This document shows, piece by piece, positions 1 to 12,674 of a stretch of 53,344 nt of DNA. The position numbers and the translations under genes are program-made. Each line of letters opens with the position of its first letter. The stretch's first letter is position 1. The notes under the pieces were generated by a model. The model was given only the letters and a program-made list of their open reading frames with translations, did not search any database and had not been told where the DNA came from. Origin of the DNA: a virus. Lineage: Duplodnaviria > Caudoviricetes. The stretch is from IMG/VR virus record IMGVR_UViG_3300030329_003045, positions 1 through 53,344 of that record; one strand, written 5' to 3'.

Positions 1-328
1 GTGATATATATATACCCACTTATACCAAACAGTCCCATAAAGAATTGCTGTGTATGCTTAATATATGCAGGATAAATACTAGTAAGACCAAATAGATACG
101 TGTTATCATAATTAAGCTATGATAGATGCAATGGATGTGTTATATGTGTGAAATTTGCCGTAATGTTACACATATATAATATTAAGTTGTAGTTCACTGA
201 TTATGAGCGAATAACATTACTAGGTGTGACTGACACTTAAACTAAACAGTCAGGCTATGAAAGTCGTGGATGGTATTAGAGCTACCAACATCATGTAAGT
301 CCATATGTTATAATAGTATTGAGGTTCT
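1..328. repeat. Imperfect terminal repeat, copy A (allele A of an assembly bubble)
   Basis: 1-77 is identical to 52993-53069 and 252-328 is identical to 53268-53344 (both exactly 77 bp); the sequence between is homologous but divergent. Confidence 0.95.
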
Positions 329-398
329 ATGTCCTGTCACGGGATACTTGATATGATGTATAATAAGGTTTGTGCGTTCCTACCAAAAATGCACAAAT
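100..398 (+). ncRNA. Unnamed multi-stem, pseudoknotted ncRNA
   Basis: Stems 137-150/169-182, 160-167/213-220 and 227-232/247-252 are preserved by compensatory or G-U changes in the second allele; further hairpins run to ~398; no ORF; boundaries approximate. Confidence 0.75.
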
Positions 399-403
399 TA
401 TTC

Positions 404-600
404 TTCGAGGTAGTATAAATGTAAGGAAAGTGAAGTGTTATGTAAAACACTATGTCAGTAGTAAGGTTGACATCTTGCTGACACAGGATTAAATGGTCAA
501 CAGCATAATTAAAAGCAAGTACTTACTATGTCTTTAAGACTTTGAAATAATACTCAGAGCTGAAATGCCTGCAATGTAGGTTTGAATCCTGCTCTCGTCA
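404..600 (+). ncRNA. tRNA-like RNA (GAA-centred loop) with ~130-nt structured insert in the D-loop
   Basis: Acceptor CGAGG 406-410/TCTCG 593-597, TA linker, D-stem GTAT 413-416/ATAC 550-553, loop CTGAAAT 560-566, T-arm GTAGG-TTTGAAT-CCTGC 576-592. Confidence 0.55.
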
Positions 601-639
601 TAAATTATAACTTGTAACTCTAACCAATAAGGAGACACT

Positions 640-837
640 ATGTCTATAAATAATGTAATACCCAATGATATTGTCTGTGAAGACAGTCTAGATAACCAAA
701 TGCAGGCTTTCTTAGCTGCTATGAGGGATATACTAGATACTCAATGTAGAATGATGGTAGATAAGGATAGTTATGTGGAGCGGAGAAGAGTAAAGAAGAT
801 ACGTGGGGCAAGATTTAAGGTTATCTCTAAAACCTAA
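640..837 (+). CDS. Hypothetical protein (65 aa)
   Basis: ORF with AAGGAG RBS, located between RNA elements. Confidence 0.65.
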   Translation: MSINNVIPNDIVCEDSLDNQMQAFLAAMRDILDTQCRMMVDKDSYVERRRVKKIRGARFKVISKT

Positions 838-844
838 GAATATA

Positions 845-922
845 GGGCATGATATGGTATTCGACTGCTTAAGGCTTCAAGGAGCTGGTAGTAGAACGTG
901 AGTTCGATTCTCACCATGTCCA
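845..922 (+). ncRNA. Minimal tmRNA-like RNA (tRNA-like domain only, no tag reading frame)
   Basis: GGGCATG/CATGTCC acceptor with G3-U70 and discriminator A; tmRNA-type stemless D region ATATGGTATTCGAC; T-arm GTGAG-TTCGATT-CTCAC preceded by GAAC; P2 capped by a short hairpin. Confidence 0.8.
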
Positions 923-927
923 CTAAC

Positions 928-989
928 AGAGAAGTGTATCCAGGTAAGGTATAATGCGAATTATAACCCATGATCCCAAAAGCTTCTCT
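928..989 (+). ncRNA. Small stem-closed RNA module with GNRA hairpin
   Basis: AGAGAAGT/GCTTCTCT closing stem; inner ATAAT-GCGA-ATTAT. Confidence 0.45.
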
Positions 990-1049
990 AAATTTTCTAT
1001 TGACGAATAGGAGACTTTTAGTTGATTGAACGATAACAACTATTAGTAT

Positions 1050-1144
1050 CGCGGGGTGGAGCAGCCAGGAATAGGATAAGCTATCTTATATAGCTCACTG
1101 GAAGAAATATCCAGAGGTCAGGGGTTCAAATCCCCTCCCCGCTT
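1050..1144 (+). tRNA. Initiator-tRNA-like RNA with D-loop hairpin insert and non-canonical anticodon loop (AGAAATA)
   Basis: CGCGGGGTGGAGCAGCC..GG..TAGCTC matches the bacterial tRNA-fMet scaffold, including an unpaired C1; stem CTGGA/TCCAG; T-arm AGGGG-TTCAAAT-CCCCT; 21-nt insert at 1070-1090; no CAT anticodon; no CCA. Confidence 0.75.
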
Positions 1145-1151
1145 AAGAATT

Positions 1152-1886
1152 TATGAACAACGAATAATAGGCCGCTTCGGGTCTTTGAGGATAGTATATG
1201 GTAACATATATAAAGTTAATAGCGCCAGTAATGGTCCAACGGAAGCAAGCAAGTATTGCTGCTGATCTCAATGGGGTAATCCCTGAGAGAATGGTAGTCT
1301 TTGCGATGGTAAGCGAGTGAGTCTGGTGACAGGCAATAAATAAACTTGTAAGGTACTTAAGCTGAGCATGTAGGGTGTTAAGCTGGGTATTATGAAGATA
1401 TGCTAATCTTGTAGTGATATAAGATATGTGCGTATAGAGATTTGATGTATCCTAAATACATTGGAAGAGTCTAGTAGAGTATTCACTGTCGTAAGATAGT
1501 GAGCTTTATCCACGAGCACTGGACTTGGATTGCCTAAAACTAACTTAATCGTTAAATAATATATAAAATAGAATATAAAAACGACAAAGTTCTTGTGGCG
1601 TTACAGAGCATAGGGCTCTAATCCCTTACACTTTTGTGAATAAGGGGCTGGATAGTTGGTCAACAACTTGAAGGTTTTGTGATGAAAGCGTCAGTCTTGG
1701 GTCTGCAGCCTGGGATGTCATTGTGACTTAATTGAGGTGAGTAGTTGCTGAAACAACTGTAACGTTAAGAGTGATAGTCTATAACTATTGAGCTTGCTGA
1801 TGTACTTCTGTCAAAGGGAGTGGATAAGAGGAGAATAAATAATACCTCGAAAGTGTCAGCGTATCAAGTGTAATCTCAACTTGTAA
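1152..1886 (+). ncRNA. GOLLD-like giant ncRNA
   Basis: ~730 nt without an ORF, downstream of a tRNA-like gene; many short GTAA/GCAA/GTGA-type hairpins in the 5' half; 3' end TACTTCT..AAAGGGAGTGGATAAGAGG..AATAAT.CCTCGAAAG..GTGTAATCTCAAC resembles the GOLLD 3' domain as I recall it; boundaries approximate. Confidence 0.7.
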
Positions 1887-1927
1887 TAAATACTCCAATA
1901 ATGGTAATTAACCAACAAGGAGTAATT

Positions 1928-2095
1928 ATGCCAAATAAACAAGCAAAAGAACGTAAACGTATTAAAGCTGAACTTAATAAATCTCTAAAACTGAATGGTA
2001 GGACTGCTAATCAGGTAAAAAAGATTAAAGCTAGAAATATTGAGAGAAAGAAGAAGCTTGAGAAACGTTTAAAGGAACGTGGGTTGCTTAGGTAG
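1928..2095 (+). CDS. Small highly basic protein (MPNKQAKERKR...GRTANQ)
   Basis: AAGGAG RBS before ATG 1928 (the ORF track starts at 1901); Lys/Arg-rich. Confidence 0.75.
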   Translation: MPNKQAKERKRIKAELNKSLKLNGRTANQVKKIKARNIERKKKLEKRLKERGLLR

Positions 2096-2100
2096 CCCAC
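2079..2100 (+). terminator. GC-rich hairpin at the end of the basic protein gene (possible terminator or processing site)
   Basis: GTGGGTTGC-TTAG-GTAGCCCAC; no U-tract. Confidence 0.4.
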
Positions 2101-2118
2101 ATAAACTTAGGAGGTAAC

Positions 2119-2247
2119 ATGGATATTTGGATTTATGATTTATTTTGGTTAGTAGAAACAGCCATAACAATAGCTATTAAATATTATATATTAATTGCTG
2201 CCTATAGATTTGTAAGAGCACGAAGGTGGCCTAAATGGAACATATAG
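2119..2247 (+). CDS. Small membrane protein (42 aa; not in ORF track)
   Basis: AGGAGG RBS; MDIWIYDLFWLVETAITIAIKYYILIAAYRFVRARRWPKWNI. Confidence 0.65.
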   Translation: MDIWIYDLFWLVETAITIAIKYYILIAAYRFVRARRWPKWNI

Positions 2248-2255
2248 GTAGTATT

Positions 2256-2390
2256 ATGAAAAATATATTAAATAAATATCATCTATGTGAGATATGTAAT
2301 GAGTTTTATAATAAGAACAAAGAAATATGTGATGATTGTGAAACTGAAATTGATGAAATAATGGCTGAAGGTGAGAATTTTGAATATTAA
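2256..2390 (+). CDS. Small zinc-ribbon-like protein (44 aa; not in ORF track)
   Basis: CEIC...CDDC pair in MKNILNKYHLCEICNEFYNKNKEICDDCETE... Confidence 0.55.
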   Translation: MKNILNKYHLCEICNEFYNKNKEICDDCETEIDEIMAEGENFEY

Positions 2391-2424
2391 CTGCGATAGA
2401 GTATAATCTCACTGCAGTTAACCA

Positions 2425-2669
2425 GAGTTTGTTAAGGAGTCGCTTGGGGTCGATAAGAACCCTTGCGATTAAAGAGTATAGTTTATGAGACTGGACTAGA
2501 AGGGTTGAGATCCTTTTAGTTAGCCATGAGCCGCAACGTGTGGTTGTTTGAGTGCTTGTGGTAAGTAGCAGACGTGTGAAACTAACTATTAATAAACTCA
2601 CCAAATTGGTAGGAGAGACAAGAGGTCTATAGAAGTGTGACAACAACCACTTAATAGCTATAGATCTTT
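2425..2669 (+). ncRNA. Unnamed ~245-nt structured RNA with long-range loop pairing
   Basis: Closing stem 2425-2435/2589-2599; internal hairpins; stem 2621-2632/2658-2669 whose loop AACAACCAC (2642-2650) complements GTGGTTGTT (2540-2548). Confidence 0.65.
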
Positions 2670-2726
2670 AACACCCATCATCGATAGGAATACCTGAAGG
2701 CTTTAACAAGCTGTTGGTGGGTGTTA
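2669..2726 (+). ncRNA. Small three-way-junction-like RNA module
   Basis: TAACACCCATCA/TGGTGGGTGTTA stem enclosing AGG-AATA-CCT and GCTT-TAAC-AAGC. Confidence 0.45.
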
Positions 2727-2759
2727 TAAAATTGATAATAACAATAACATGGAGGTCAC

Positions 2760-2918
2760 ATGGACAACAAAAAAACAATGTTAATAGTAGTTGGTTTAAT
2801 AGTAATTGCTTTATTTGGATGGGCAGTATCGGGAAGCTCAGATGATATTACTGAACCTGAAACTGTTGATACTGAAGCTGTTGACACTGAGTCTAACTCA
2901 GAAGAAACTACTGAGTAA
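2760..2918 (+). CDS. Small membrane-anchored protein with acidic tail (52 aa; not in ORF track)
   Basis: GGAGG RBS; MDNKKTMLIVVGLIVIALFGWAVSG followed by a D/E/T-rich tail. Confidence 0.75.
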   Translation: MDNKKTMLIVVGLIVIALFGWAVSGSSDDITEPETVDTEAVDTESNSEETTE

Positions 2919-2925
2919 TTTAAAA

Positions 2926-3006
2926 TAGGGCTGTAGTGACAGGCGAGTGATGGAGCGGTAATGCTTAATAAATGATATCCACACTAACGAGGGTCAATCA
3001 GCCCTA
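2926..3006 (+). ncRNA. Stem-closed RNA module
   Basis: TAGGGCTG/CAGCCCTA, TGAC/GTCA and inner GTG..TGGA/TCCA.CAC pairings. Confidence 0.45.
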
Positions 3007-3016
3007 AAAAACTGAC

Positions 3017-3078
3017 TGGCATACTCAGGGTAGGGAACTTAGCGAACCTGATAGGGAGTACATCTACAATGTATGCCA
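3017..3078 (+). ncRNA. Stem-closed RNA module
   Basis: TGGCATAC/GTATGCCA with inner TCAGG/CCTGA. Confidence 0.45.
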
Positions 3079-3103
3079 AAAATTTAAAAGGAGGATTAAA
3101 CTT

Positions 3104-3292
3104 ATGAAAAAAGTATACATATTATTTACAGATGCAAGATCACTTGGTAGAGTACCTATGGAAGATGAATGGGATAAGGAAATAGTAGGAATATATACTA
3201 ATAGAGCAAATGCTGAGAAAGATCTTCCTAGTAACACAGAAAATAATGTTTACTATATAGAAGAACATCAAATAGAAGATATTAAGGAGTAA
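3104..3292 (+). CDS. Hypothetical protein (62 aa)
   Basis: AGGAGG RBS; typical small phage early protein (KVYIL...IVGIY...AE...YYIEE). Confidence 0.75.
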   Translation: MKKVYILFTDARSLGRVPMEDEWDKEIVGIYTNRANAEKDLPSNTENNVYYIEEHQIEDIKE

Positions 3293-3294
3293 TA

Positions 3295-3558
3295 ATGGAT
3301 AAGCATAAATACAGACATAAAAAATATGATACAACTATTATGCAGACAGTAACTGTTGGAAATATTGTAGAATCATTAATTCTTGGTATTAAACACAGGA
3401 ATTTAAAAGAAGTGGTAAACTTTTTAGCAGAACAAAGAACTAAAGCATTATTAAAATGTGATAGAAGAAAAGTAAGTAGTACTGATAGAAAGATTAAACA
3501 CTTGAAGGAATTAGGGTATAATATACCAAAGGAGGTAGAAGATGGCCTTAATGTTTGA
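3295..3558 (+). CDS. Hypothetical protein (87 aa)
   Basis: RBS AAGGAG, tightly coupled to neighbours. Confidence 0.7.
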   Translation: MDKHKYRHKKYDTTIMQTVTVGNIVESLILGIKHRNLKEVVNFLAEQRTKALLKCDRRKVSSTDRKIKHLKELGYNIPKEVEDGLNV

Positions 3559-3691
3559 ACCTGTTAGAACAGAAAATGACATAATAAAAGAACTTATTGA
3601 ACTTAAGAATAAACAGTCTGTCCTAAGAATTAAAGAAAATAAACTAATAGATGAATTAGTTCAAGTTAATAGGGAGGATAAAAATGAGTAG
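3542..3691 (+). CDS. Small coiled-coil hypothetical protein (49 aa; not in ORF track)
   Basis: AGGAGG RBS upstream of ATG 3542; fills the operon gap. Confidence 0.6.
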   Translation: MALMFEPVRTENDIIKELIELKNKQSVLRIKENKLIDELVQVNREDKNE

Positions 3692-3773
3692 TTTAATAAG
3701 TATACTATTAATATTTATAGCATGTCTAACATGGGCTGTTATTTGGTATTATATAGTAAAGAAGTTGTTTTGA
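3684..3773 (+). CDS. Small hydrophobic peptide (29 aa; not in ORF track)
   Basis: GGAGG RBS; MSSLISILLIFIACLTWAVIWYYIVKKLF. Confidence 0.55.
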   Translation: MSSLISILLIFIACLTWAVIWYYIVKKLF

Positions 3774-3774
3774 T

Positions 3775-3954
3775 ATGGATATAGGTATGTTAGAAGCAAA
3801 CACTGTGATATTGAGAAAGACCGTGAAATACTTAGATGGTGAGATGAAAATTGTTGTTGAGAAGAGAATTAAAGATAATTATAAACTAATTGATGGATTC
3901 TTTGATGAATTAGCACAAGAATATAAATCAATACAATCGTACGAACAAGAATAG
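3775..3954 (+). CDS. Hypothetical protein (59 aa; not in ORF track)
   Basis: Open frame coupled to the upstream stop, ending at the RBS of the Ubl gene. Confidence 0.55.
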   Translation: MDIGMLEANTVILRKTVKYLDGEMKIVVEKRIKDNYKLIDGFFDELAQEYKSIQSYEQE

Positions 3955-3962
3955 GAGGCCTT

Positions 3963-4181
3963 ATGGCAACTAAAACAATCAAATTTCTACAAGGTGGCGG
4001 CTTTGTGGAAAGACAAACTAACGCTGATACTGTTGAACAATTAAGAAATGAATTTCCAGATGACATAACTGCGAATTCATCTGTTGCTGTTAATGGAGTA
4101 TCTGTAACTAATACACACGAAGTAAATGAAGGTGATATTGTTGCAGCTGTTAATAACAATAAATCTGGTGGTGATCAGTAG
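3963..4181 (+). CDS. Ubiquitin-like beta-grasp protein (ThiS/MoaD-like) with C-terminal GG plus DQ extension
   Basis: 72 aa; TVEQL..., VAVNG..., EVNEGDIV..., NKSGG-DQ; AGGAGG RBS; upstream of E2, JAB and E1 genes. Confidence 0.85.
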   Translation: MATKTIKFLQGGGFVERQTNADTVEQLRNEFPDDITANSSVAVNGVSVTNTHEVNEGDIVAAVNNNKSGGDQ

Positions 4182-4200
4182 ATAAGTAAATGAATAACTT

Positions 4201-4285
4201 TAAAGGGAGAGTTACGGCTAAAACCACCATCCGTTAATATACTAGACCACATCGGAGTGCTAGTTAAGCGTGGTCTCTCTCTTTA
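4201..4285 (+). promoter_or_regulatory. Intergenic stem-closed RNA structure between Ubl and E2-like genes
   Basis: 11-bp stem TAAAGGGAGAG/CTCTCTCTTTA plus TTACG/CGTGG, just before the RBS at 4294. Confidence 0.5.
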
Positions 4286-4302
4286 TTAACCTTGGAGGGT
4301 AT

Positions 4303-5670
4303 ATGAATAATTATGAAGTAGTATATGTCGACGAACAAGACATTGGACAAGCTATAGATTTTATAGATTTAGATGCTATGGCTGAACACATTTATTTTGG
4401 CCCACAAGCTGAAATAATGGAGAAATTAAATCTATTTAACCAAAGAAATGACTGTAATTTAAGTGTTACTAAAACATTTAGATGGTCACCTGGTACTTAT
4501 GATAAAGTAGCTGAAATGATGATGAGAAGAGTTGGGTTGAGAAGAAGAGCATCTGGTATGTATAGTTATTTATCTAGAGAAGAGTATTATTGGGGTCCAG
4601 GAAGACAGAACATACAAGAAGATCTAAGAGATATGGATAGAATAATTACTAATTTAAGATATCAAGGAGTACAATGGTTAGAAGATCCATCTATATTAAT
4701 TGAAAGAAAAGAGACATTTAAGAATTATATATGTGAAAAATTCGAAGGTCTTCTTGAATTAATAGGAAAAATGGATAAAATAACCGTATTAGGTGTATTA
4801 TTAGAGCAAGATGGTAGTGCTACAACTAGAAGTTCTAGATTAGTTATAAATTTATGCTTACATCCAGGTGAAGTACAAATATATAATGCTAATAATGGAG
4901 GCACTCCAACACATGTGCAGAATCTACCAGCAGAGATGGATTTATTAGTAAGGATAGAAATGTATCCATTACAAGAAATGATAAATGAAAGACTAACTAG
5001 ATTTAATGTTCATACTTATGGAAGAACAGAATCTTATGATGATAGAGGTGCATTATATTTTCCTTATATAGCTAGAACTGATAGACGAAATAGTTGGAAC
5101 TCGCCTGAAGGGTATGGAACTATTTGTTATGGTGATGACTCTACTGATATTAATCGAGCATTAAACAATTTTGAATTACCAGCATATGCTATGTTATTAG
5201 TTAATTGGATGGGTAGATATACTCAAAATACTAATCCATATAATAATATTAAGACATTATATCATGGTGAGCCTAAATGGTTAAATGATGATTATAGAGC
5301 TATATTTGGTACAAATAACTGGGATGCATGTAGATATAGACCATCTGGGCATGATGATTACTGTGATACTAATGAGTGTGCATTAAGACATACTTGTGAA
5401 ATATACAAAACAGCATATCCAGAACCAGTAACGCCAGAGCAAGCCGAACAAATGACCTTGCAATGGGCTACTAGAATGGGTGGAGTTGGATCTAATGCTA
5501 GTCAACCGACAGCTGATCAGACTTGGGTTAATCCAGAAGCTGTTAGAGAAGAGCGTATTAATGCTGAAATGGATGCTGAAGAAGCAGAATTAGAAGCATA
5601 TCAAAGAGCTATGGAAGCTAGTATCGAATCAGAACAAGCTGCTGATAACATTATAGAAGAGGAGGAATAA
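4303..5670 (+). CDS. Putative prokaryotic E2-like (UBC-fold) conjugating enzyme with C-terminal Cys cluster
   Basis: FPYI...GYGTICYG resembles the E2 (H)PxI...GxICLG catalytic segment, followed by helices and NPY; Cys4 cluster near the C-terminus; operon context; start moved to ATG 4303 with GGAGG. Confidence 0.6.
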   Translation: MNNYEVVYVDEQDIGQAIDFIDLDAMAEHIYFGPQAEIMEKLNLFNQRNDCNLSVTKTFRWSPGTYDKVAEMMMRRVGLRRRASGMYSYLSREEYYWGPGRQNIQEDLRDMDRIITNLRYQGVQWLEDPSILIERKETFKNYICEKFEGLLELIGKMDKITVLGVLLEQDGSATTRSSRLVINLCLHPGEVQIYNANNGGTPTHVQNLPAEMDLLVRIEMYPLQEMINERLTRFNVHTYGRTESYDDRGALYFPYIARTDRRNSWNSPEGYGTICYGDDSTDINRALNNFELPAYAMLLVNWMGRYTQNTNPYNNIKTLYHGEPKWLNDDYRAIFGTNNWDACRYRPSGHDDYCDTNECALRHTCEIYKTAYPEPVTPEQAEQMTLQWATRMGGVGSNASQPTADQTWVNPEAVREERINAEMDAEEAELEAYQRAMEASIESEQAADNIIEEEE

Positions 5671-5972
5671 TGAGTTTTGTAACAGAAAATAGTATGAAAG
5701 CACATTACAAGAGATTATCTTGTAGAACTATTAAAATAAATGGCGTTAGACTTGATCTTGAGGTTTATAAAACGCCTGATGGTATGACATTTGAGGTAGT
5801 AGAACATGTTCCTGATACAGTATTTGATGATAATTATGTATCAAGACATGAAACACATATCTCTTGGGATAAAATAGTAGACGCTCCAGAAGAGCCTTTA
5901 CCAGAAGAAGATAATGAACCTTTAACAGAAGAAGACGATAGTCTAGGAAGAATGTACGGAGGAGTAAAATAA
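5670..5972 (+). CDS. Hypothetical acidic-tailed protein within the Ubl operon
   Basis: TAATG-coupled on both sides, between the E2-like and JAB genes. Confidence 0.7.
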   Translation: MSFVTENSMKAHYKRLSCRTIKINGVRLDLEVYKTPDGMTFEVVEHVPDTVFDDNYVSRHETHISWDKIVDAPEEPLPEEDNEPLTEEDDSLGRMYGGVK

Positions 5973-6919
5973 TGGAAGTTTATATAGATAAAGAATGTTG
6001 GGATAAGATAATAAATTATGCCAAAGCTGCTTATCATACTGAAAAGTGTGAAATAGGCGGTATGTCAGTAGTAACACAAGATAAAGATGGTGATTGGCTT
6101 ATTCAAGAGCCTGTAATACTAAAACAGGAGATAGGGAGCACTACTTGTGACCTAGATAAAGAGGAATTAGCTAAATATTACACTAAAATGGCTGTAAAAT
6201 ACAATGAAACCAACTTTAGATTCTGTTGGTGGCATAGTCATCACACAATGGGAGCATTTTGGAGTGGTACAGACATATCAAGTATAGATGAATATGGTGA
6301 AGGAGAGTCAGATTTAAGCTTTGCTCTTGTAGTAAACCTTAAAGAAGAGTATAAATGCAGAGTTTCTGTATGGAAACCAGTAGAAATTCATCAAGATGTT
6401 GAACTAAAGATACTTAGTGATAAGCCTGATGTAGAAATACCACTTGATATAGTTACTGAAGTTAAAGAAAAGTGTGAAACTAGATCAATAGTTAATACTG
6501 GATACTCTAAAACTCAAAATGGCAACACAACTTTGCCTTTATGGGACAATACTCGTAATAATTGGGCTAGTTATAAGATGCTAGAAGATGATTTAACCAA
6601 TGTATATGTCCCTAGTCAGCAAGAAATAGCTAATTTTGAGGCTAAATATGAGTATGCATGTATGAAAGCTCAAGAATTTCTACATCAAGTAACAGTTGGT
6701 GGCTGGTCTATGCATAAATTCAAGAAAGCAATCAGAGAAACTAACAAACAAATAGCAAAATATGGTGTTCAAATAGAAGAATTGAACAAAAGAGAGCTAA
6801 AAGAGTTCGTAGAAATGGAGTCAGCTCCATATGAACTTGTAGCTTCTGATGCTAAATTCGCTGATATTGCTGATGCAATGATGGAAATGCACAGTTATAA
6901 TGGAGGATACATGATATGA
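5972..6919 (+). CDS. JAB/MPN+ (JAMM) metalloprotease (Ubl-processing/deconjugating)
   Basis: E(IGG)...WWHSHHTMGAFWSGTD fits HxH-x7-S-x2-D. Confidence 0.9.
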   Translation: MEVYIDKECWDKIINYAKAAYHTEKCEIGGMSVVTQDKDGDWLIQEPVILKQEIGSTTCDLDKEELAKYYTKMAVKYNETNFRFCWWHSHHTMGAFWSGTDISSIDEYGEGESDLSFALVVNLKEEYKCRVSVWKPVEIHQDVELKILSDKPDVEIPLDIVTEVKEKCETRSIVNTGYSKTQNGNTTLPLWDNTRNNWASYKMLEDDLTNVYVPSQQEIANFEAKYEYACMKAQEFLHQVTVGGWSMHKFKKAIRETNKQIAKYGVQIEELNKRELKEFVEMESAPYELVASDAKFADIADAMMEMHSYNGGYMI

Positions 6920-7569
6920 TTAACTTAAGAAGTCAAGACATTGCAAATTTAGATAATGTTGAATTCCATATTGTAGGTTGCGGGGCTATTGGAAGCTCCG
7001 TGGCCATGCAATTAGTAAGATTGGGAGCAAATAACTTCTATTTGTATGATTTTGATAAAGTAGAAATACAAAATGTAGGTGTAAGCCAATACAATGAACA
7101 AGATGTAGGGCTGCCTAAAGTAGGTGCTTTAATAAATCATATGAAAAGAATAAATGTGTTGATAAAAGTTCAAGGATATATGTCTAAATTTACAAATTAT
7201 AGAGGTAGTAAAGAAGGTATATTGATTCTAGGTTTAGATAGTATGAAAGCTAGAAAAGATATAGTTGAATTGCTAGTAAATTGCCCTGATAAGCCTAAAA
7301 TAGTAATTGATGGCAGGATGGGAGCTGAACATTATCAGCAATACATATATGATAACATAACTATGGCTAAATATGAGAAAAATTGGTATTCTGATGAGGA
7401 ATCTGATCAAGAACCATGTACTCGTAAAGCTACAAGTTACTGTTCAAATATGAGTGGTAGTTTTATAGCAAACGCTGCAAAGAATATCGTTATGAAACAG
7501 CCATATTTTAAAGAAATTAGTTTCAACTTTTCAACATTAATACTTGATAAAAAGAAATTAGTTTCGTAA
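6916..7569 (+). CDS. E1-like ThiF/MoeB-family adenylating enzyme
   Basis: VGCGAIG, DFDKVEIQNV, GLDSMKAR, IDGRMG and putative catalytic Cys in EPCT. Confidence 0.92.
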   Translation: MINLRSQDIANLDNVEFHIVGCGAIGSSVAMQLVRLGANNFYLYDFDKVEIQNVGVSQYNEQDVGLPKVGALINHMKRINVLIKVQGYMSKFTNYRGSKEGILILGLDSMKARKDIVELLVNCPDKPKIVIDGRMGAEHYQQYIYDNITMAKYEKNWYSDEESDQEPCTRKATSYCSNMSGSFIANAAKNIVMKQPYFKEISFNFSTLILDKKKLVS

Positions 7570-7572
7570 GTT
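7544..7572 (+). promoter_or_regulatory. Putative sigma70-like promoter for the replication module
   Basis: TTGATA-N17-TAAGTT at the end of the E1 gene; overlaps the second copy of a 15-bp direct repeat. Confidence 0.4.
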
Positions 7573-7659
7573 CTAAGCCCTTCAATCGAGGGGTTCATTC
7601 GCACACAGAAAGAGGTGGAAATTCCCCTCTGCCTCTTTCATTAATATAGGAGAAAATCA

Positions 7660-8163
7660 ATGGATAATATTGATATTTCAAAACAAAATGGTATTGCTAA
7701 GTCTGTATTAGAAGATAAAGCAAAACGTGAAGAAAAAGAGAAATCTTTTGATCAAGCACAAGATAGAAGATCTGATGAATGGAAATCACCTGAAATAGAC
7801 AAATTAGCCGAAGCATTAGCTAAAGCTCAATCTGAAATGGAAGGTGCTAAAAAAGAGAGTGTTAATCCATTCTTTAAGTCTAATTACGCAGATTTACATG
7901 CAGTAATCACATCAGCATTCCCACATTTAAGTAAACACGGACTATCTGTTAGTCAAGGTAACGAAATGATTATGGGTGCTGTGTGTGTAACAACAACATT
8001 AATGCATTCTTCTGGACAATGGTTACGTTCTAAAGTGAAACTTCCATTATCTAAGAAAGATGCTCAAGGCGTAGGAGCTGCTATTACATATGGCAGAAGA
8101 TACGGTTTATCCGCAATTGTAGGCATTGCTCAATATGATGATGATGCTCAATCAATTAGTTAA
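7660..8163 (+). CDS. erf: ERF-family single-strand annealing protein
   Basis: LAKAQ...NPFFKSNYADL...HSSGQW...QGVGAAITYGRRYGLSAIVGIAQ.DDDA. Confidence 0.92.
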   Translation: MDNIDISKQNGIAKSVLEDKAKREEKEKSFDQAQDRRSDEWKSPEIDKLAEALAKAQSEMEGAKKESVNPFFKSNYADLHAVITSAFPHLSKHGLSVSQGNEMIMGAVCVTTTLMHSSGQWLRSKVKLPLSKKDAQGVGAAITYGRRYGLSAIVGIAQYDDDAQSIS

Positions 8164-8180
8164 CTAAAAGGAGAACACAA

Positions 8181-8717
8181 ATGGTTAGAACATTAACTGT
8201 TAAAACAGGTGGTGGATCTAGTTTTTCAACTGGATGGCACACCAAGCTTATATCAAAAGCTGAATATGGTGACTTCAATGGTACTAAATATCTAGACGTA
8301 TGGTTTGATGACTTTCCTGAGTCGTTAAATATGCGAGTATATGAGAAAAAGAATGCTAATGGCGAAGAATTTGCTATTGGTAATCTATTTAGATATGCTA
8401 ATGCAGGTATTACTAGTGCTTTAGAAGGTGCAAATAACACTAAAGTTATTAAACTGGATGATAGTCCCGAAGCATTAATAGGTAAAAATGTTAATGTGTA
8501 TGTACACAAAGATGGTAAATATTCAAGAGTATTAAATCAATGTGCTCCAACTGAATTTGAAAACGTAGTAGAGAAATTCTCTGCTGATGATGTTCAGTAT
8601 TGGAAGGACAGAGCTGAGAAATACTTTAAAGAATATGTACAGCCTAAATTAGAAAAGAAATTAGATGATGTCGTTGACACTTCTGATTCCTCCGAGAGTG
8701 ACGATATACCATTCTAG
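8181..8717 (+). CDS. Single-stranded DNA-binding protein-like
   Basis: Acidic C-terminal tail ending DDIPF; follows ERF. Confidence 0.7.
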   Translation: MVRTLTVKTGGGSSFSTGWHTKLISKAEYGDFNGTKYLDVWFDDFPESLNMRVYEKKNANGEEFAIGNLFRYANAGITSALEGANNTKVIKLDDSPEALIGKNVNVYVHKDGKYSRVLNQCAPTEFENVVEKFSADDVQYWKDRAEKYFKEYVQPKLEKKLDDVVDTSDSSESDDIPF

Positions 8718-8737
8718 TGAGTAGGTAATCGTTAAAT

Positions 8738-8835
8738 TATAGGGAGGCAACAACTGGTCCTATAAGTCCTAGTGGATACAGGTGGTGTTCACCGAACACA
8801 GAAACTAGGCAAAGGAATATGTGAGTCTCCCTATA
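8738..8835 (+). ncRNA. Stem-closed multibranch RNA element before the primase operon
   Basis: TATAGGGAGGC/GTCTCCCTATA; inner CCTAGT/ACTAGG and GTGTTC-ACC-GAACAC. Confidence 0.5.
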
Positions 8836-8852
8836 TAATCAAAGGAGGATAT

Positions 8853-9068
8853 ATGAGAGCAACAGAATTTATGCATTTTATTAATATAAGTCCTAAAGAG
8901 CTAAAATTAGGACAAAACTTGAGAGGAGATGATTATACCCATATGACTATAAGAATGAGAGTAAAAAGAGCAAGGTATGAGCATCAAACTGATCTTAGAA
9001 AACGAGAAAAAGAAGCTGAAAAAGCTGCTGAAGAAATTAGAAAGTATTTTAGGAGGAAAAAGAAATGA
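8853..9068 (+). CDS. Small basic hypothetical protein
   Basis: AGGAGG RBS before ATG 8853 (the upstream extension in the ORF track lies in an RNA stem). Confidence 0.65.
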   Translation: MRATEFMHFINISPKELKLGQNLRGDDYTHMTIRMRVKRARYEHQTDLRKREKEAEKAAEEIRKYFRRKKK

Positions 9069-10822
9069 CAGAGCTATATAAAGAGTTCGCATTAGGAGTA
9101 AATAATAGACATAACTTCCAAGCAGTAAATAAAGTTTCTGACTGGATGGGTACAGATAGCGATACCTTTATGTCTTTATATGATTATGATGAGTATGTAG
9201 TAGAATTTTATGCTAAGAATAAGTCTTTATCAGGATATGATGGATTAATATATATGCCTGATGAGTTTATATTAGATGTAGATGGTGAAAGTGTATGGGA
9301 GGCATCTCAAAAGACTGCAGCATTACTTATACGTTTAGATGAACTATTTGTTCCATACTATGTATACTTTAGTGGTAGAGGATTCCATATACATATATCA
9401 GAAACAGCATTTAAATGGAGACCTAGTAAGAACTTACACATAAGAGTGAAAGAAGAACTTACTAAACATGGTATATTTGAATATGCTGATCCATCTGTTA
9501 CTGATAAATCTAGATTAATAAGGATACCTAATACTTTAAATACTAAATCTGGACTATGGAAGGTACCATTTCCTCAAAAAGCATTATATGAGAATAGTGT
9601 GTTAGAGAGAACTATTAACAAATGGTGTACAAAGCCTAGAGAACTAGAATTAGAACATGCATTAGAATGTAATGAAGTATTTGATGTATTTGATAAAGAA
9701 GAAGTTAAGGAACAAACGCCAGTTAAGATTAAAAGCACTAGAGACCCTGTAAATACTACATGTATACAGAAAATGATGGATGGTGCACCTCATGGTAAGC
9801 GTCATATGGTAGCTCTTAGAATAGCATCTTACTTAAGATGGAACTTTCCAGAGAATATTGTACGTTTAATCATGGAAGATTGGCGTATAAAGGTCAGTAA
9901 TGAAGCACAAAGTGAGTTTAAAGCTGAAGAAATGGAAGGTATAATAGAAGGTTGTTATACTGGACATGATGGACAAGGCTACAGATATGGTGCTGATGAC
10001 CCTGTTATAAAGTTTTATTGCAATTCTAGATGTACATTACATAGAGGGGCTAAAGCTGAAAATATGATGGATTCTAGTAGTATGGAGAACGAACTTATCA
10101 ATTTCTATGCTCAAGATCTTAAACCTATCAACTTAGGTGAAGCTTATGGGCAAGATTTCCCTGTATATCCAGGTGAAACAGTTATAATCCAGGCTCCACC
10201 AGCTAGTATGAAGACTATGTTACTACAAAATTGGGCTAATTACTTCAAGAAACAGACATATTTTGTTGAAATGGAGATGTCACCAAGACAAATATGGTCT
10301 AGATTTGTACAAATTGAGATGGGTTGGGATGAAAAACAACTAGCAGAACACTATAAGCAAATGAAAAATGGTATGGACAAGCGTTTTGAGTGGTTAACTG
10401 TTGATTATTCAGCGCCATATGCGCAGGAATTAGAGACAAGAATCACTAGCCTACCCATTAAGCCAGAAATAGTAATTGTTGACCATTTGGGGCTATTTAA
10501 GAGCAAACAGAAGGATAACAATATGAAAGTTGAGGAAGCATCCCAAGCCATTATGGAACTAGCAGTAAGACAAAACGTGATCGTCTTTGCTGTTAGTGAG
10601 GTAAGTAAATCAGCCTTTAAAGAAGGTATGGATATATCTTCGTCTAGAGGTTCATTCAGAATAGCTTATAATGCTAATAAAGTGATTTCAATTAACCCGT
10701 TCAAGAATAAAGAAACAGGTTTAGTAGAGATGTTAGATATTAAATCTGATAAGAATAGAGAGAAAGAACACTTATATGCAAGATTAAGCGTAAATAATGT
10801 TAGGATAGAAAAATGCGAATAA
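9065..10822 (+). CDS. AEP-type primase fused to a DnaB/RecA-like helicase domain
   Basis: LDVD and FSGRGFHIH AEP motifs, RLIRIPNTLN, primase C-terminal-like region (G.RH), Walker A-like APPASMKT, Walker B IVIVDH, KNR. Confidence 0.85.
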   Translation: MTELYKEFALGVNNRHNFQAVNKVSDWMGTDSDTFMSLYDYDEYVVEFYAKNKSLSGYDGLIYMPDEFILDVDGESVWEASQKTAALLIRLDELFVPYYVYFSGRGFHIHISETAFKWRPSKNLHIRVKEELTKHGIFEYADPSVTDKSRLIRIPNTLNTKSGLWKVPFPQKALYENSVLERTINKWCTKPRELELEHALECNEVFDVFDKEEVKEQTPVKIKSTRDPVNTTCIQKMMDGAPHGKRHMVALRIASYLRWNFPENIVRLIMEDWRIKVSNEAQSEFKAEEMEGIIEGCYTGHDGQGYRYGADDPVIKFYCNSRCTLHRGAKAENMMDSSSMENELINFYAQDLKPINLGEAYGQDFPVYPGETVIIQAPPASMKTMLLQNWANYFKKQTYFVEMEMSPRQIWSRFVQIEMGWDEKQLAEHYKQMKNGMDKRFEWLTVDYSAPYAQELETRITSLPIKPEIVIVDHLGLFKSKQKDNNMKVEEASQAIMELAVRQNVIVFAVSEVSKSAFKEGMDISSSRGSFRIAYNANKVISINPFKNKETGLVEMLDIKSDKNREKEHLYARLSVNNVRIEKCE

Positions 10823-11142
10823 ACATGCAAAATAGAGTAAAAGAAGTACTTGAAGATAGTATTCATTGTAGAGATAGTGATGTGTATTTAGTTTATGAGA
10901 TATGGAGTCAGGAAATAATAGATAATCCTAGAACACCATACCTGGATCAGGTCCTTGTAAATGAAATAGACATGATAGATATGTTTAAAATGTGGAAAGA
11001 TAAATTGGTTTCACATCCATCTGCTATAATGAGAGCTAGGAGAAAAGTACAGGAAGAACACCCTCATACTAGAGGTAAAGTATGGGAAGAAAGACATAAT
11101 CAACAACAACAAGTACAAGAAGATTTAGGGTACAATAGTTAG
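10813..11142 (+). CDS. Conserved phage hypothetical protein (RDSD...AIMRARRKVQE..P..RG)
   Basis: Motif pattern commonly seen in environmental phage proteins; coupled ORF. Confidence 0.7.
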   Translation: MRINMQNRVKEVLEDSIHCRDSDVYLVYEIWSQEIIDNPRTPYLDQVLVNEIDMIDMFKMWKDKLVSHPSAIMRARRKVQEEHPHTRGKVWEERHNQQQQVQEDLGYNS

Positions 11143-11213
11143 TCGAGGAAGGTATAGTAATAAGCAACTAAACTGAAATTGGCTACGTACCCTATTAATT
11201 TAAGGAGGCTATA

Positions 11214-11435
11214 ATGGCTAAGAAAACTGAAGTAAAAGAAGGTAAAACTTATATTTCTGAAAAAGAATTTAAAGCAATTAAATCAGAACCAAAAGTTGAC
11301 CCATTTGATGAGAGATTAAAAGATATTGAAAGTGATTTAAAGATGGCAGGTAAAACTGTTGATGAATTAAATCAAAGTATCAATGCTATAAGTGATTTAC
11401 TTAATAGAGTCGCAGATAGAATGGGGATGAAATAA
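11214..11435 (+). CDS. Hypothetical coiled-coil protein
   Basis: AGGAGG RBS. Confidence 0.7.
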   Translation: MAKKTEVKEGKTYISEKEFKAIKSEPKVDPFDERLKDIESDLKMAGKTVDELNQSINAISDLLNRVADRMGMK

Positions 11436-11638
11436 TGAATGCTCCTAATAAAAAACCAACTATGATGCAAGTGAAAAATGCAATCTCAAATCTAATATCT
11501 GAAATGGCTTATTTGAAAGAACATGTTTCAAAAATAGACAATATATTTTCTGATTATATAATGTATAGAAAACAAGGTGATAATTTTAAAGCATATTTAG
11601 AAAAGAAATACACACCTAAGGAAGAAGATAAAAAATGA
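11435..11638 (+). CDS. Hypothetical protein
   Basis: TAATG-coupled ORF. Confidence 0.7.
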   Translation: MNAPNKKPTMMQVKNAISNLISEMAYLKEHVSKIDNIFSDYIMYRKQGDNFKAYLEKKYTPKEEDKK

Positions 11639-11808
11639 ACATGTATAAAGAAGCAACAGAACATCTTGAAAAATGTGATGGTTGTGAATACTGCGTTGCA
11701 TATGAGGAGAGTGCATATAACATCTCTAAATACTATAAACCAGTAGAAAAAGAACACCCATTATTAAAAGATATTATAGAGAAATTCGATGGTATCGAAA
11801 TTAGTTAA
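11635..11808 (+). CDS. Small protein with CxxCxxC and C-terminal HPLLKDIIEKFDG motif (57 aa; not in ORF track)
   Basis: ATGA-coupled open frame. Confidence 0.6.
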   Translation: MNMYKEATEHLEKCDGCEYCVAYEESAYNISKYYKPVEKEHPLLKDIIEKFDGIEIS

Positions 11809-11956
11809 TTGTAACAAATGTAATTTAGATTGCGCTCCTGTATATTCTACAAGTTTATCTCCAAATATAACTAAATATATATGCAGGAGTTGCGCTCTAA
11901 AAACAATGGAGAAGGATAATGATAGAAGATCTAATGAAATTAAAAAGTCAGATTGA
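11789..11956 (+). CDS. Small zinc-finger-like protein (55 aa; not in ORF track)
   Basis: CNKC...CRSC. Confidence 0.5.
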   Translation: MVSKLVNCNKCNLDCAPVYSTSLSPNITKYICRSCALKTMEKDNDRRSNEIKKSD

Positions 11957-12191
11957 TACTATGATAGAAACATATAAAGATCTGCATCCTGATACATATT
12001 TTGAATATGAACCTCATATACAGAATGAAATTATTATGGATAAAGAAGACCATGAAGAGTATGAAAAACAAGAAGCTTTAAAAAAAATAAGAGAGGGGAC
12101 TTATGAAAGCACGTTCCGCAAAAAACAAAGGCAGGAAACTACAGAACTTGGTGAGGGATCGATTACGCTCTGTGTTTATGGAGACACTTGA
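11919..12191 (+). CDS. Hypothetical protein
   Basis: ORF with GGAG/AAGGA RBS; 3' part overlaps the next gene. Confidence 0.55.
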   Translation: MIEDLMKLKSQIDTMIETYKDLHPDTYFEYEPHIQNEIIMDKEDHEEYEKQEALKKIREGTYESTFRKKQRQETTELGEGSITLCVYGDT

Positions 12192-12456
12192 GAAGAATGA
12201 TATAGAGTCCCAGGTCATGGGAATGAGCGGTGAAGATATAGTATTATCACCAGCAGCTAAAAGGGTTATTAGATACAGTTTTGAATGTAAAAATCAAGAA
12301 AGATTAAACCTCTGGAGTTCTTTAGAGCAAGCTGAATCTAACTGTGAAGATAGAAATCCTGTTCTGGTATTTAAACGTAACAGATCAAAAATCTATGTAG
12401 CCATGGAATTTGATCATTTTATAGAATTAATTGATGAAAAGTTAAAGGAGATTTAA
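12103..12456 (+). CDS. PD-(D/E)xK nuclease, Holliday junction resolvase-like
   Basis: SAKNKGRKLQ...MGMSGEDI...SFECKNQE...PVLVFKRNR. Confidence 0.8.
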   Translation: MKARSAKNKGRKLQNLVRDRLRSVFMETLEKNDIESQVMGMSGEDIVLSPAAKRVIRYSFECKNQERLNLWSSLEQAESNCEDRNPVLVFKRNRSKIYVAMEFDHFIELIDEKLKEI

Positions 12457-12674
12457 TGAAAAGAGGGTTTACTCTAAGTAAAGATTATATGTGTGCATTC
12501 CTGTACCCATTTGGAATAGAAATTTTAATAGAAGATGGTATTACAATAGCGATACTATTTTATAAATTTGAATTTAGTATGTATATAGGTAAAAATTTCA
12601 CTATATTTGGTGACATTATAGAAAAGGCTTTAAAAGCAAGAGCCAAAATAAAATCAAACGAAATTAAAAATTAA
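12456..12674 (+). CDS. Hypothetical protein (last gene of the + arm)
   Basis: TAATG-coupled; converges on the - arm. Confidence 0.6.
   Translation: MKRGFTLSKDYMCAFLYPFGIEILIEDGITIAILFYKFEFSMYIGKNFTIFGDIIEKALKARAKIKSNEIKN

Follow-up and report, generated by a model that had tools for sequence, protein, structure and literature searches.

A putative ubiquitin-like conjugation module with a highly divergent E2-like protein in the early region of a tailed-phage genome

Conjugation of ubiquitin-like proteins (Ubls) in prokaryotes has so far been shown on the cell side, as anti-phage defence, in Bil, in CBASS Cap2, and probably in Bub. Bil, a bacterial system made of a Ubl, an activating enzyme (E1), a conjugating enzyme (E2) and a JAB peptidase, acts in anti-phage defence according to the available part of its description (10.1101/2023.09.04.556158), and its E2 is thought to choose the target, as stated in the accessible portion of the Bub paper. 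Bub itself, in the same portion, is described as using serine and tyrosine oxyester chemistry and a BubE (DUF6527) protease. The available sections of Iyer et al. (2006) describe ThiS/MoaD-JAB-E1 clusters for sulfur assimilation, and the sole phage case that they contain is a tail-assembly Ubl (TAPI) with a JAB-NlpC protein (TAPK), without E1 or E2. Here, we describe genes for a Ubl, an E2-like protein of 455 residues (p455), a JAB/JAMM metallopeptidase, and a ThiF-type E1 that lie together in the early region of IMG/VR record IMGVR_UViG_3300030329_003045, a genome of 53,344 bp from an uncultured marine phage; this whole stretch is the window of the analysis. The phage and every relative in which this could be tested carry the Ubl beside enzymes likely to activate, conjugate, and trim it, probably for protein tagging like that by eukaryotic ubiquitin.

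We think it rather likely that the module is a phage-encoded cascade for Ubl activation and conjugation with a new, very divergent E2 family. This interpretation rests on gene identities (for the E2 fold, on models only), on motif conservation, and on strict linkage, from which we infer the chemical steps, the target, and the purpose. A literature search, with most subscription journals and supplements outside its coverage, found no paper on a phage Ubl-E2-JAB-E1 module.

Linkage and identity of the Ubl, JAB, and E1 genes

The original prediction, made from the DNA alone, had described five co-directional genes within positions 3963-7569 as one operon, and all five open reading frames (ORFs) with their quoted motifs were found where it had placed them (Table 1). 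We compared the module with 40 related loci from a scan of IMG/VR. A locus was counted as testable for JAB and E1 if it reached at least 3.5 kb downstream of p455, and for the Ubl if it reached at least 1.5 kb upstream. JAB and E1 were both present in 29 of 29 such loci, and the Ubl in 32 of 32, in 31 of them by phmmer and in L032 by a hidden Markov model (HMM; E-value 5e-20). All four genes were seen in 24 loci. The synteny search in viral data that had been proposed along with the prediction hence gave a uniform result: Ubl, p455, JAB, and E1 stood together in every testable locus. In L031 (positions 5986-9851) the gene order is p455, Ubl, JAB, E1 instead of Ubl, p455, JAB, E1; as the four genes are together there nonetheless, the linkage survives rearrangement. 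The p455 and JAB genes abut or overlap (gap of at most 23 nt) in 18 of 31 loci, and the motif residues described below are invariant or nearly so in relatives down to ∼20% identity.

A homologue of the fifth gene, which encodes a 100-aa protein, was found in only five of the 40 loci. Therefore, the conserved unit is comprised of Ubl, p455, JAB, and E1: the operon stands as a four-gene set, while the 100-aa gene is lost from it as a conserved member. Five of 31 loci (L004, L007, L011, L018, and L025) have another ORF, of 287-289 aa, between p455 and JAB. The one in L004 (positions 2708-3577) encodes a radical-SAM protein similar to spore-photoproduct lyase (Pfam SPL, E = 3.1e-21), and those of the other four are assigned as radical-SAM by size and position only.

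The predicted identities of the Ubl, JAB, and E1 were borne out by family matches to ThiS, to Prok-JAB and the PADLOC JAB model, and to ThiF, respectively. The Ubl ends in K67-S-G69-G70-D-Q, so that a two-residue tail, D-Q, follows the Gly-Gly. K67, G69, and G70 are invariant in 22 Ubl sequences, as is the motif K-[S/T]-G-G, and 19 of the 22 family members match ThiS at E ≤ 0.01. Compared with PDB sequences, the Ubl profile retrieved only weak MoaD and ISG15 rows (E from 0.19 to 0.96). The tail after the Gly-Gly varies among relatives from no residues (L032 and L037) to 1-3, 8-9, or ∼30 residues, which by analogy appears to be the pattern of processed ubiquitin-type precursors.

The JAB domain occupies approximately residues 1-150 of its protein, and the remaining C-terminal part of 165 aa is variable. 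Its motif consists of E27 and H88-S-H90-x7-S98-x2-D101, with E27, H88, S89, H90, S98, and D101 invariant in 28 unique JAB sequences. The PADLOC JAB model matches with an E-value of 3.2e-8, and the best solved match, to whose motif that of the phage JAB can be aligned, is 6fjv, an Rpn11-like protein from archaea (E = 0.18). With its metal-binding motif complete, the protein is predicted to be a JAMM/MPN+ metallopeptidase.

The E1 is a minimal, 217-aa protein with a single adenylation domain and a single Pfam match, to ThiF (PF00899; residues 8-135, E = 8e-19, 68.2 bits vs. the cut-off of 28.1). The alignment of 24 E1 sequences contains 66 invariant columns; D108 and R113 are invariant, as is G21-x-G-x-x-G26 of the nucleotide loop, which in this E1 reads G-C-G-A-I-G. 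Also invariant in all 24 are the candidate cysteine in E-P-C168-T, which the original prediction had pointed out, and a second cysteine, C176, which it had not mentioned. Other matches include the PADLOC E1-E2 models (E-values down to 8.8e-16) and, among solved structures, UBA5 (6.4e-8), UBA6, MoeB, and Cap2 as the best relatives. From these data the protein can be firmly predicted to be a true ThiF/E1 adenylating enzyme.

The p455 family

p455 has no match in Pfam, PHROG, PADLOC, or NCBIfam, and none of the Pfam E2 families (UQ_con, Prok-E2_A to E) was found in 40 of its relatives at E ≤ 0.01. A word search yielded 53 homologues. A search of 1.84 billion representatives with the profile of the p455 core matched 337 clusters (at 50% identity), of which 215 had E ≤ 1e-10. 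In the collections searched, the family is confined to viral contigs and metagenome proteins; when one genome from every one of 185,579 prokaryote species was scanned with p455 patterns, none of the 59 matches was a relative.

AlphaFold2 models were made for the whole protein (mean predicted local distance difference test, pLDDT, 74.7) and for residues 124-345 alone (pLDDT 81.1, predicted TM-score 0.81). Both contain a long helix, a beta-meander, and two or three helices. The best Foldseek row in the PDB for the domain was the UEV domain of Vps23 (E = 0.051). When the top 996 Foldseek chains were re-examined, they turned out to be almost exclusively E2 entries, with nearly the whole E2 core of ∼150 residues aligned. 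The domain was also compared with 48,161 representative chains by VIA-align, an aligner independent of Foldseek. Here, 33 chains reached Z ≥ 5, and 38 of the 50 best titles name an E2, UEV, or RWD protein, while most other rows among these 50 are large complexes; between 117 and 154 residues were aligned. The best rows were FTS (Z 6.7, root-mean-square deviation 3.2, 134 residues aligned) and UBE2F (Z 6.6, root-mean-square deviation 3.8, 138 residues aligned), and the E2 domain of bacterial Cap2 had Z 4.9. We judge the p455 core to be UBC-like because the match list is almost wholly one superfamily, despite the middling Z. The earlier suggestion that this protein is E2-like thus survives: residues 124-345 are modelled as a UBC (E2) fold, and their matches are almost all E2, UEV, or RWD proteins. 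By ESM Atlas features, 28 of the 30 best named matches of the core are viral clusters containing Prok-E2_D (score 0.91), which we treat as a lead only.

In E2 enzymes, the conserved motifs follow each other in the order Y-P, H-P-N, catalytic Cys. The p455 family has a series of the same kind: Y-P, then [H/F]-P-[Y/F]-[I/V], then a Cys ∼20 residues later, so that, at the level of sequence, its motif order appears to parallel that of E2 enzymes. Among 153 domains of the family (147 cluster representatives), the Cys is present in 145, the Pro in 143, and the first motif position is His in 106 or Phe in 34; seven of the eight domains without the Cys have alignment gaps at this position. Distant relatives carry His where this phage has Phe253, which brings them closer to the H-P-N of classical E2s.

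Two further features of p455 lie outside the core. One is a cluster of four cysteines, C-x(n)-C-x4-C-x5-C, invariant in 31 close homologues. Its C-x4-C-x5-C part is retained in relatives at ∼24% identity, and across 148 sequences the conservation of C343 and C359 reaches 90% or more. As the model is poor at residues 350-365 (pLDDT below 50), we can only infer zinc binding, and the cluster is a possible zinc knuckle. The other is a W-A-T-R-M-G-G motif, also invariant in the 31 close homologues and followed by a highly variable linker. Its R-M-G-G seems to resemble a ubiquitin-type processing site. In distant relatives, the Q-W-A helix is kept and the Gly-Gly is not.

Parts of the module are also found in other phages. 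Homologues of the E1, at 31-33% identity, occur in 76 phage records, all of them from Flavobacterium, Bacteroides crAss-like, or uncultured crAss-like phages, which may indicate that this phage, too, has a host among the Bacteroidota, with marine Flavobacteriia as the first guess. In two such loci, from Flavobacterium phage FpV4 and crAss-like cr85_1, a JAMM gene (BLASTP E-values 5e-7 and 1e-6) lies directly upstream of the E1 gene, among replication genes. In the records of crAss-like and FpV4-like phages, the E1 is named "thiamine biosynthesis protein", while the JAB is called either hypothetical or "metalloprotease domain". The next gene upstream of the JAMM gene encodes a protein of 371 or 420 aa, homologous between the two loci (E = 1e-9) and sharing a Y-M-H-S-H ... 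C-x-G motif. Profile comparison gave no link between these two proteins and p455 (hhalign probability at most 0.3), and within 5 kb to each side in both loci HMM searches retrieved neither a Ubl nor a p455 homologue. Separately, a fold search of BFVD with the p455 core matched proteins of crAss-like viruses, 373-435 aa in length (E = 6.4e-5 and 4e-4). This suggests that a related E2-like gene may exist in crAss-like phages, with the genes upstream of JAB as candidates for it.

Proposed mechanism and alternative explanations

From the genes and motifs, we predict the following chemistry of activation, transfer, and conjugation, a relay of the ubiquitin type being the simplest explanation in which all conserved parts have a role. 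JAB would trim the short tail behind the Gly-Gly of the Ubl, here D-Q, exposing Gly70. The minimal, probably homodimeric E1 would adenylate Gly70 with ATP and may form a thioester with the Ubl, on C168 or C176. The Ubl would then be handed to Cys275 in the UBC-like core of p455, which, by means of its extra N-terminal domain and Cys4 knuckle, would select the target itself, a protein of the host or the phage, and attach the Ubl to one of its lysines. JAB may also take the Ubl off again. As JAB is retained in L032 and L037, where the Ubl ends at the Gly-Gly, it probably does more than processing. The module lies among recombination and replication genes, and so do its JAB-E1 relatives in other phages, which suggests an early function. 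The most likely purposes would be takeover of the host, counter-defence, or regulation of proteins for replication and recombination.

Several points weigh against such a cascade. The trio of a Ubl with Gly-Gly and a tail, a JAB, and an E1 also defines sulfur-carrier pathways. No sequence profile ties p455 to any E2 family: the Pfam scan of p455 at E ≤ 1 returned zero families, no E2 family is among the matches listed (25 of 91 families) for 97 relatives at E ≤ 1, and the p455 profile found nothing relevant among PDB sequences. Foldseek gave no PDB match at E ≤ 0.001 for either p455 model, and the Z values of VIA-align, at most 6.7, are middling, as by the tool's own guidance Z below 8 may reflect merely a common arrangement. 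The location of Cys275 at the E2 catalytic position is a presumed spatial equivalence. In the E1, there is neither a distinct domain for a catalytic Cys nor a known E2-binding domain. Finally, two of the Pfam matches fall below their cut-offs, ThiS in the Ubl (E = 1.1e-3, 19.9 bits vs. 22.5) and, just barely, Prok-JAB in the JAB (E = 4.3e-5, 23.8 bits vs. 25).

In sulfur-carrier systems with a JAMM peptidase, extra residues are removed from a ThiS-like Gly-Gly protein, and a small ThiF-type E1 is present. If the module worked after the model of QbsC/D/E, CysO-Mec-MoeZ, or ThiS-ThiF, JAB would trim the Ubl, the E1 would adenylate it, and a host persulfide donor would make it a thiocarboxylate; the sulfur would be delivered to a small molecule, a tRNA, or a DNA base, with p455 as the sulfur-accepting or sulfur-inserting enzyme. 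The Ubl is indeed ThiS-like, its Gly-Gly with a short tail beside a JAMM peptidase is the QbsE/QbsD arrangement, and the best NCBIfam match of the E1 is the ThiS adenylyltransferase ThiF (E = 2.3e-21). However, all NCBIfam ThiF/MoeB matches are far under their cut-offs (76 bits vs. 159), and the E1 has no rhodanese domain. The original prediction had noted no thiamine, molybdopterin, or sulfur-transfer genes nearby, and our Pfam searches agree: in 38 ORFs (9 early and 29 larger), there were no thiamine, molybdopterin, rhodanese, sulfurtransferase, or cysteine-synthase families, and no sulfurtransferase, thiazole or molybdopterin synthase, or CysM-type enzyme. The radical-SAM (SPL-like) gene between p455 and JAB speaks for sulfur chemistry, but it is present in just 5 of 31 loci. 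Further points in favour come from the literature, as the available text of two virome papers (PMC10134843, PMC8276007) counts thiF, moeB, and mec as sulfur-relay auxiliary genes, and the ThiS/MoaD-JAB-E1 clusters in the part of Iyer et al. (2006) cited above are of the sulfur-assimilation type. On the other hand, p455, which is strictly linked, has a UBC-like fold by its model, and conserves its Cys, has no place in such pathways. We regard a sulfur carrier as unlikely, and retain it as an explanation because host enzymes could fill the missing functions.

Conjugation could also proceed by the E1 alone, without an E2, as with archaeal SAMP/UbaA or Urm1/Uba4. In that case, p455 would be an adaptor of the UEV/RWD type or the main substrate, as the CD-NTase is for Cap2. 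It is consistent with this that, among the UBC matches of p455, non-catalytic proteins (UEV, RWD, FTS) have Z values like those of true E2s, and that the 217-aa E1 has no recognisable E2-docking domain. Yet non-catalytic UEV and RWD domains usually have no HPN-like motif, while in p455 Cys275 follows such a motif, and this Cys is near-invariant in the family. Close p455 relatives also have the invariant R-M-G-G with a variable tail behind it, reminiscent of a second site for processing or activation, but the distant ones have not retained it. We find E1-only conjugation improbable. An equally small chance should be given to the same chemistry serving another purpose, a Bil-like cassette that excludes competing phages rather than a means of host takeover. 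The known bacterial Ubl-E1-E2-JAB systems serve anti-phage defence, as described in the available parts of the Bil (10.1101/2023.09.04.556158) and Bub papers, and the PADLOC JAB and E1-E2 models match the JAB and E1 of the phage. By contrast, p455 is unmatched in PADLOC and had no relative in the prokaryote species sampled, and the E1 is unlike BilD, which in the accessible description has tandem domains and a Cys domain. In addition, the module is fixed in the replication arm of all testable relatives, unlike a variable accessory island.

We continue to prefer a cascade of Ubl activation and conjugation through p455. A wider version of it can be offered only tentatively, and we have more doubt than confidence in it as a whole. 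It holds that a Ubl conjugation machine is a core early function of tailed phages infecting marine Bacteroidota, and that crAss-like gut phages and Flavobacterium phages possess it too, reduced or more divergent. The E2 of this machine would belong to a so far unrecognised family and, having a domain for target recognition and a zinc knuckle fused to it, would be an E2/E3 hybrid. Within minutes of infection, the machine would tag host defence, replication, or recombination proteins, or the phage's own, as a viral counterpart of Bil defence. In the close clade, the R-M-G-G of p455 might mark another substrate for JAB and E1.

If the cascade is real, Ubl chemistry serves bacterial viruses for attack or for regulation of their own, much as ubiquitin is exploited by viruses of eukaryotes. 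A new, very divergent E2 family of 337 clusters at 50% identity, absent from Pfam, would come with it, and the crAss-like phage genes annotated as "thiamine biosynthesis protein ThiF" and "metalloprotease" would acquire a meaning that can be tested; in marine viromes, thiF/JAB-type genes are presently counted as sulfur-relay auxiliary metabolic genes. The system is small, with ∼1,060 residues over the four conserved proteins, and its reconstitution in E. coli should be easy.

Genome setting and comparison with known systems

The window was described in the original prediction as a phage genome, and we found in it a terminase, P22-like portal, SU10-like capsid protein, primase-helicase, and Erf protein. 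It is a near-complete genome of a tailed phage (CheckV completeness estimate of 99%) with a GC content of ∼33%. The minus strand carries structural and packaging genes at ∼12.7-52 kb. The plus strand, from position 1 to ∼12.5 kb, carries small early genes, the Ubl module, the Erf annealing protein, a primase-DnaB-type helicase, and a RusA/PDDEXK resolvase. No integrase family was matched among ORFs of at least 100 aa, so lysogeny is not indicated; as this is the sole evidence, the "lytic" lifestyle that had been assumed is not borne out. The phage is without close relatives in culture: neither the module DNA nor p455 (by tblastn) had a match among 50,697 cultured or GenBank phage records, and the large terminase is at most 25% identical to those of known phages. 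More than half of the sampled words of the module are present in five public runs from at least two studies, all five labelled as marine metagenome, and no RNA run with the module is among the 20 public runs listed.

Table 1. Positions of the module, its motifs, and neighbouring or related features. Positions refer to the window, except for the last two rows, where they refer to the respective locus.
Feature	Position	Strand	Remarks
59-aa protein	3775-3954	+	Conserved neighbour directly upstream of the Ubl gene
Ubl	3963-4181	+	72 aa, ThiS/MoaD-like, predicted beta-grasp
p455 (E2-like)	4303-5670	+	455 aa, in no Pfam family
p455, N-terminal domain	Residues 1-123	+	Conserved; G-P-Q and T-K-T-F-x-W motifs
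p455, UBC-like core	4672-5337 (residues 124-345)	+	AlphaFold2 model and fold searches
p455, Y221-P222	4963-4968	+	Conserved in the core
p455, F253-P254-Y255-I256	5059-5070	+	HPN-like motif of the core
p455, candidate catalytic Cys275	5125-5127	+	Within G-T-I-C275-Y-G-D
p455, Cys4 cluster C343, C354, C359, C365	5329-5397	+	Possible zinc knuckle
p455, helix ending W-A-T-R-M-G-G	5464-5484 (residues 388-394)	+	Variable linker next
p455, C-terminus			Variable linker, then acidic C-terminal helix
100-aa protein	5670-5972	+	No family match; optional insert
JAB/JAMM metallopeptidase	5972-6919	+	315 aa, complete motif
JAB, E27	6050-6052	+	
JAB, H88 to D101	6233-6274	+	
E1	6916-7569	+	217 aa, ThiF-type
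E1, nucleotide loop G21-G26	6976-6993	+	
E1, C168	7417-7419	+	
E1, C176	7441-7443	+	
Erf-type annealing protein	7660-8163	+	Pfam ERF, E = 2.6e-24; PHROG Erf, E = 9.6e-40
178-aa protein ending D-D-I-P-F	8181-8717	+	Acidic C-terminus; no family match (Pfam, PHROG)
Large terminase	Within ∼12.7-52 kb	-	PHROG, E = 3e-74
P22-like portal	Within ∼12.7-52 kb	-	Pfam, E = 1e-54
SU10-like major capsid protein	Within ∼12.7-52 kb	-	E = 1.5e-22
Small terminase	Within ∼12.7-52 kb	-	Family match
Flavobacterium phage FpV4 (L042)	2536-5606		JAMM directly upstream of ThiF-like E1
crAss-like cr85_1 (L043)	2658-5642		JAMM directly upstream of ThiF-like E1

Within the module, p455 overlaps the 100-aa gene by 1 nt, the latter overlaps JAB by 1 nt, and JAB overlaps E1 by 4 nt, with a gap of 121 nt between Ubl and p455. 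An attenuator in this spacer was considered and dropped, because the spacer folds no better than shuffled sequences (z = -0.99). An AGGAGG ribosome-binding site precedes the Ubl gene. The ATG at 4303, with a GGAGGG ribosome-binding site in front of it, is the start of p455; if translated from the GTG at 4270 instead, the protein would have 466 aa. A scan of positions 1-13000 for promoters and terminators yielded no more sites than in shuffles. The 100-aa protein has no match in Pfam, PHROG, PADLOC, or NCBIfam.

The 59-aa protein upstream of the module, with no match in Pfam or PHROG, has a homologue directly 5' of the Ubl gene in closer relatives (E from 1e-12 to 3e-32). On the other side, the Erf gene and the gene for the 178-aa protein are conserved beside E1 in related loci, and these neighbours place the module in the replication/recombination arm. 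The D-D-I-P-F tail of the 178-aa protein is, we presume, similar to the partner-binding tail of bacterial single-stranded DNA-binding protein; if real, this similarity argues for a bacterial host.

Three observations concern other parts of the genome. The early region contains a full-length GOLLD RNA (Rfam RF02032) at 1467-1882 on the plus strand (168.4 bits vs. the gathering score of 150, E = 1.4e-45, model positions 1-416). A 95-nt tRNA-like gene precedes it by about 320 nt, at 1050-1144 on the same strand; ARAGORN reports this gene as tRNA-Stop with anticodon tta, and Rfam at the gathering threshold calls no tRNA there. Its 5' end presumably resembles an initiator-Met-type acceptor and D arm with an insertion; the gene may be a suppressor, an interrupted tRNA, or an artefact. 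On the minus strand, a single ORF of 3097 aa (15410-24703) has no match in Pfam or PHROG. The terminase weakly matches "N4 gp68-like" proteins of Roseovarius podoviruses, from which comes the idea that this ORF could encode a giant virion protein of the N4 type.

Among the known systems, Bil (BilABCD), in its available description, is like the phage module in having a separate Ubl, E2 with Cys, JAB, and E1, and no E3. The E1 of Bil, BilD, is described there as having tandem domains and a Cys domain, whereas the phage E1 has one ThiF match in its 217 aa. Moreover, Bil genes belong to cells and serve defence, while the phage module is fixed in the replication arm. Operon classes 6a-6e in the accessible sections of Iyer, Burroughs, and Aravind (2006) also resemble the module in their predicted logic, a JAB peptidase together with transfer from an E1-like protein to an E2-like one, and the ESM Atlas lead points to Prok-E2_D, one of the E2 families of these operons. 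As described in those sections, the operons sit in bacteria, plasmids, and elements like integrative and conjugative elements, and not, like this module, in a phage.

The sulfur-carrier systems, QbsC/D/E, CysO-Mec-MoeZ, ThiS-ThiF, and MoaD-MoeB, resemble the module by a ThiS-like Ubl, a JAMM peptidase, and a small E1. Unlike them, the phage has no rhodanese, sulfurtransferase, or downstream biosynthetic enzyme in the 38 ORFs, and does have a UBC-fold partner. The ubiquitin operon of the Caldiarchaeum type (ubiquitin, E1, E2, small RING protein, and Rpn11-like JAB) is similarly compact, with separate parts in one operon and a Cys-rich element, in the phage putatively metal-binding, alongside the E2, and the best solved match of the phage JAB is the Rpn11-like 6fjv. 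However, the sequence links are weak: the phage Ubl is ThiS-like, not ubiquitin-like, in sequence, and the Cys4 cluster, at most a candidate RING, is fused to the E2-like protein.

Type II CBASS Cap2/Cap3 has a related E1 and JAB, as the PADLOC E1-E2 match (E = 8.8e-16) and the presence of Cap2 among the E1 and fold matches indicate. Cap2, however, is an E2-E1 fusion that conjugates a CD-NTase, while the phage E1 and E2-like protein are encoded by separate genes; no CD-NTase was found by PADLOC among the five module proteins, of which only the JAB and E1-E2 models were matched. Compared with Bub as presented in the available part of its paper, the phage E1 and E2-like protein have a conserved Cys, and there is no family match to BubE. 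As the Bil E1, the Cap2 fusion, the Bub features, and the curated E2 families are all unmatched, we assign the module to no named family. It is a variant of the prokaryotic Ubl-E1-E2-JAB conjugation systems, resembling Bil, Cap2, and Bub in function and being a member of none of them.

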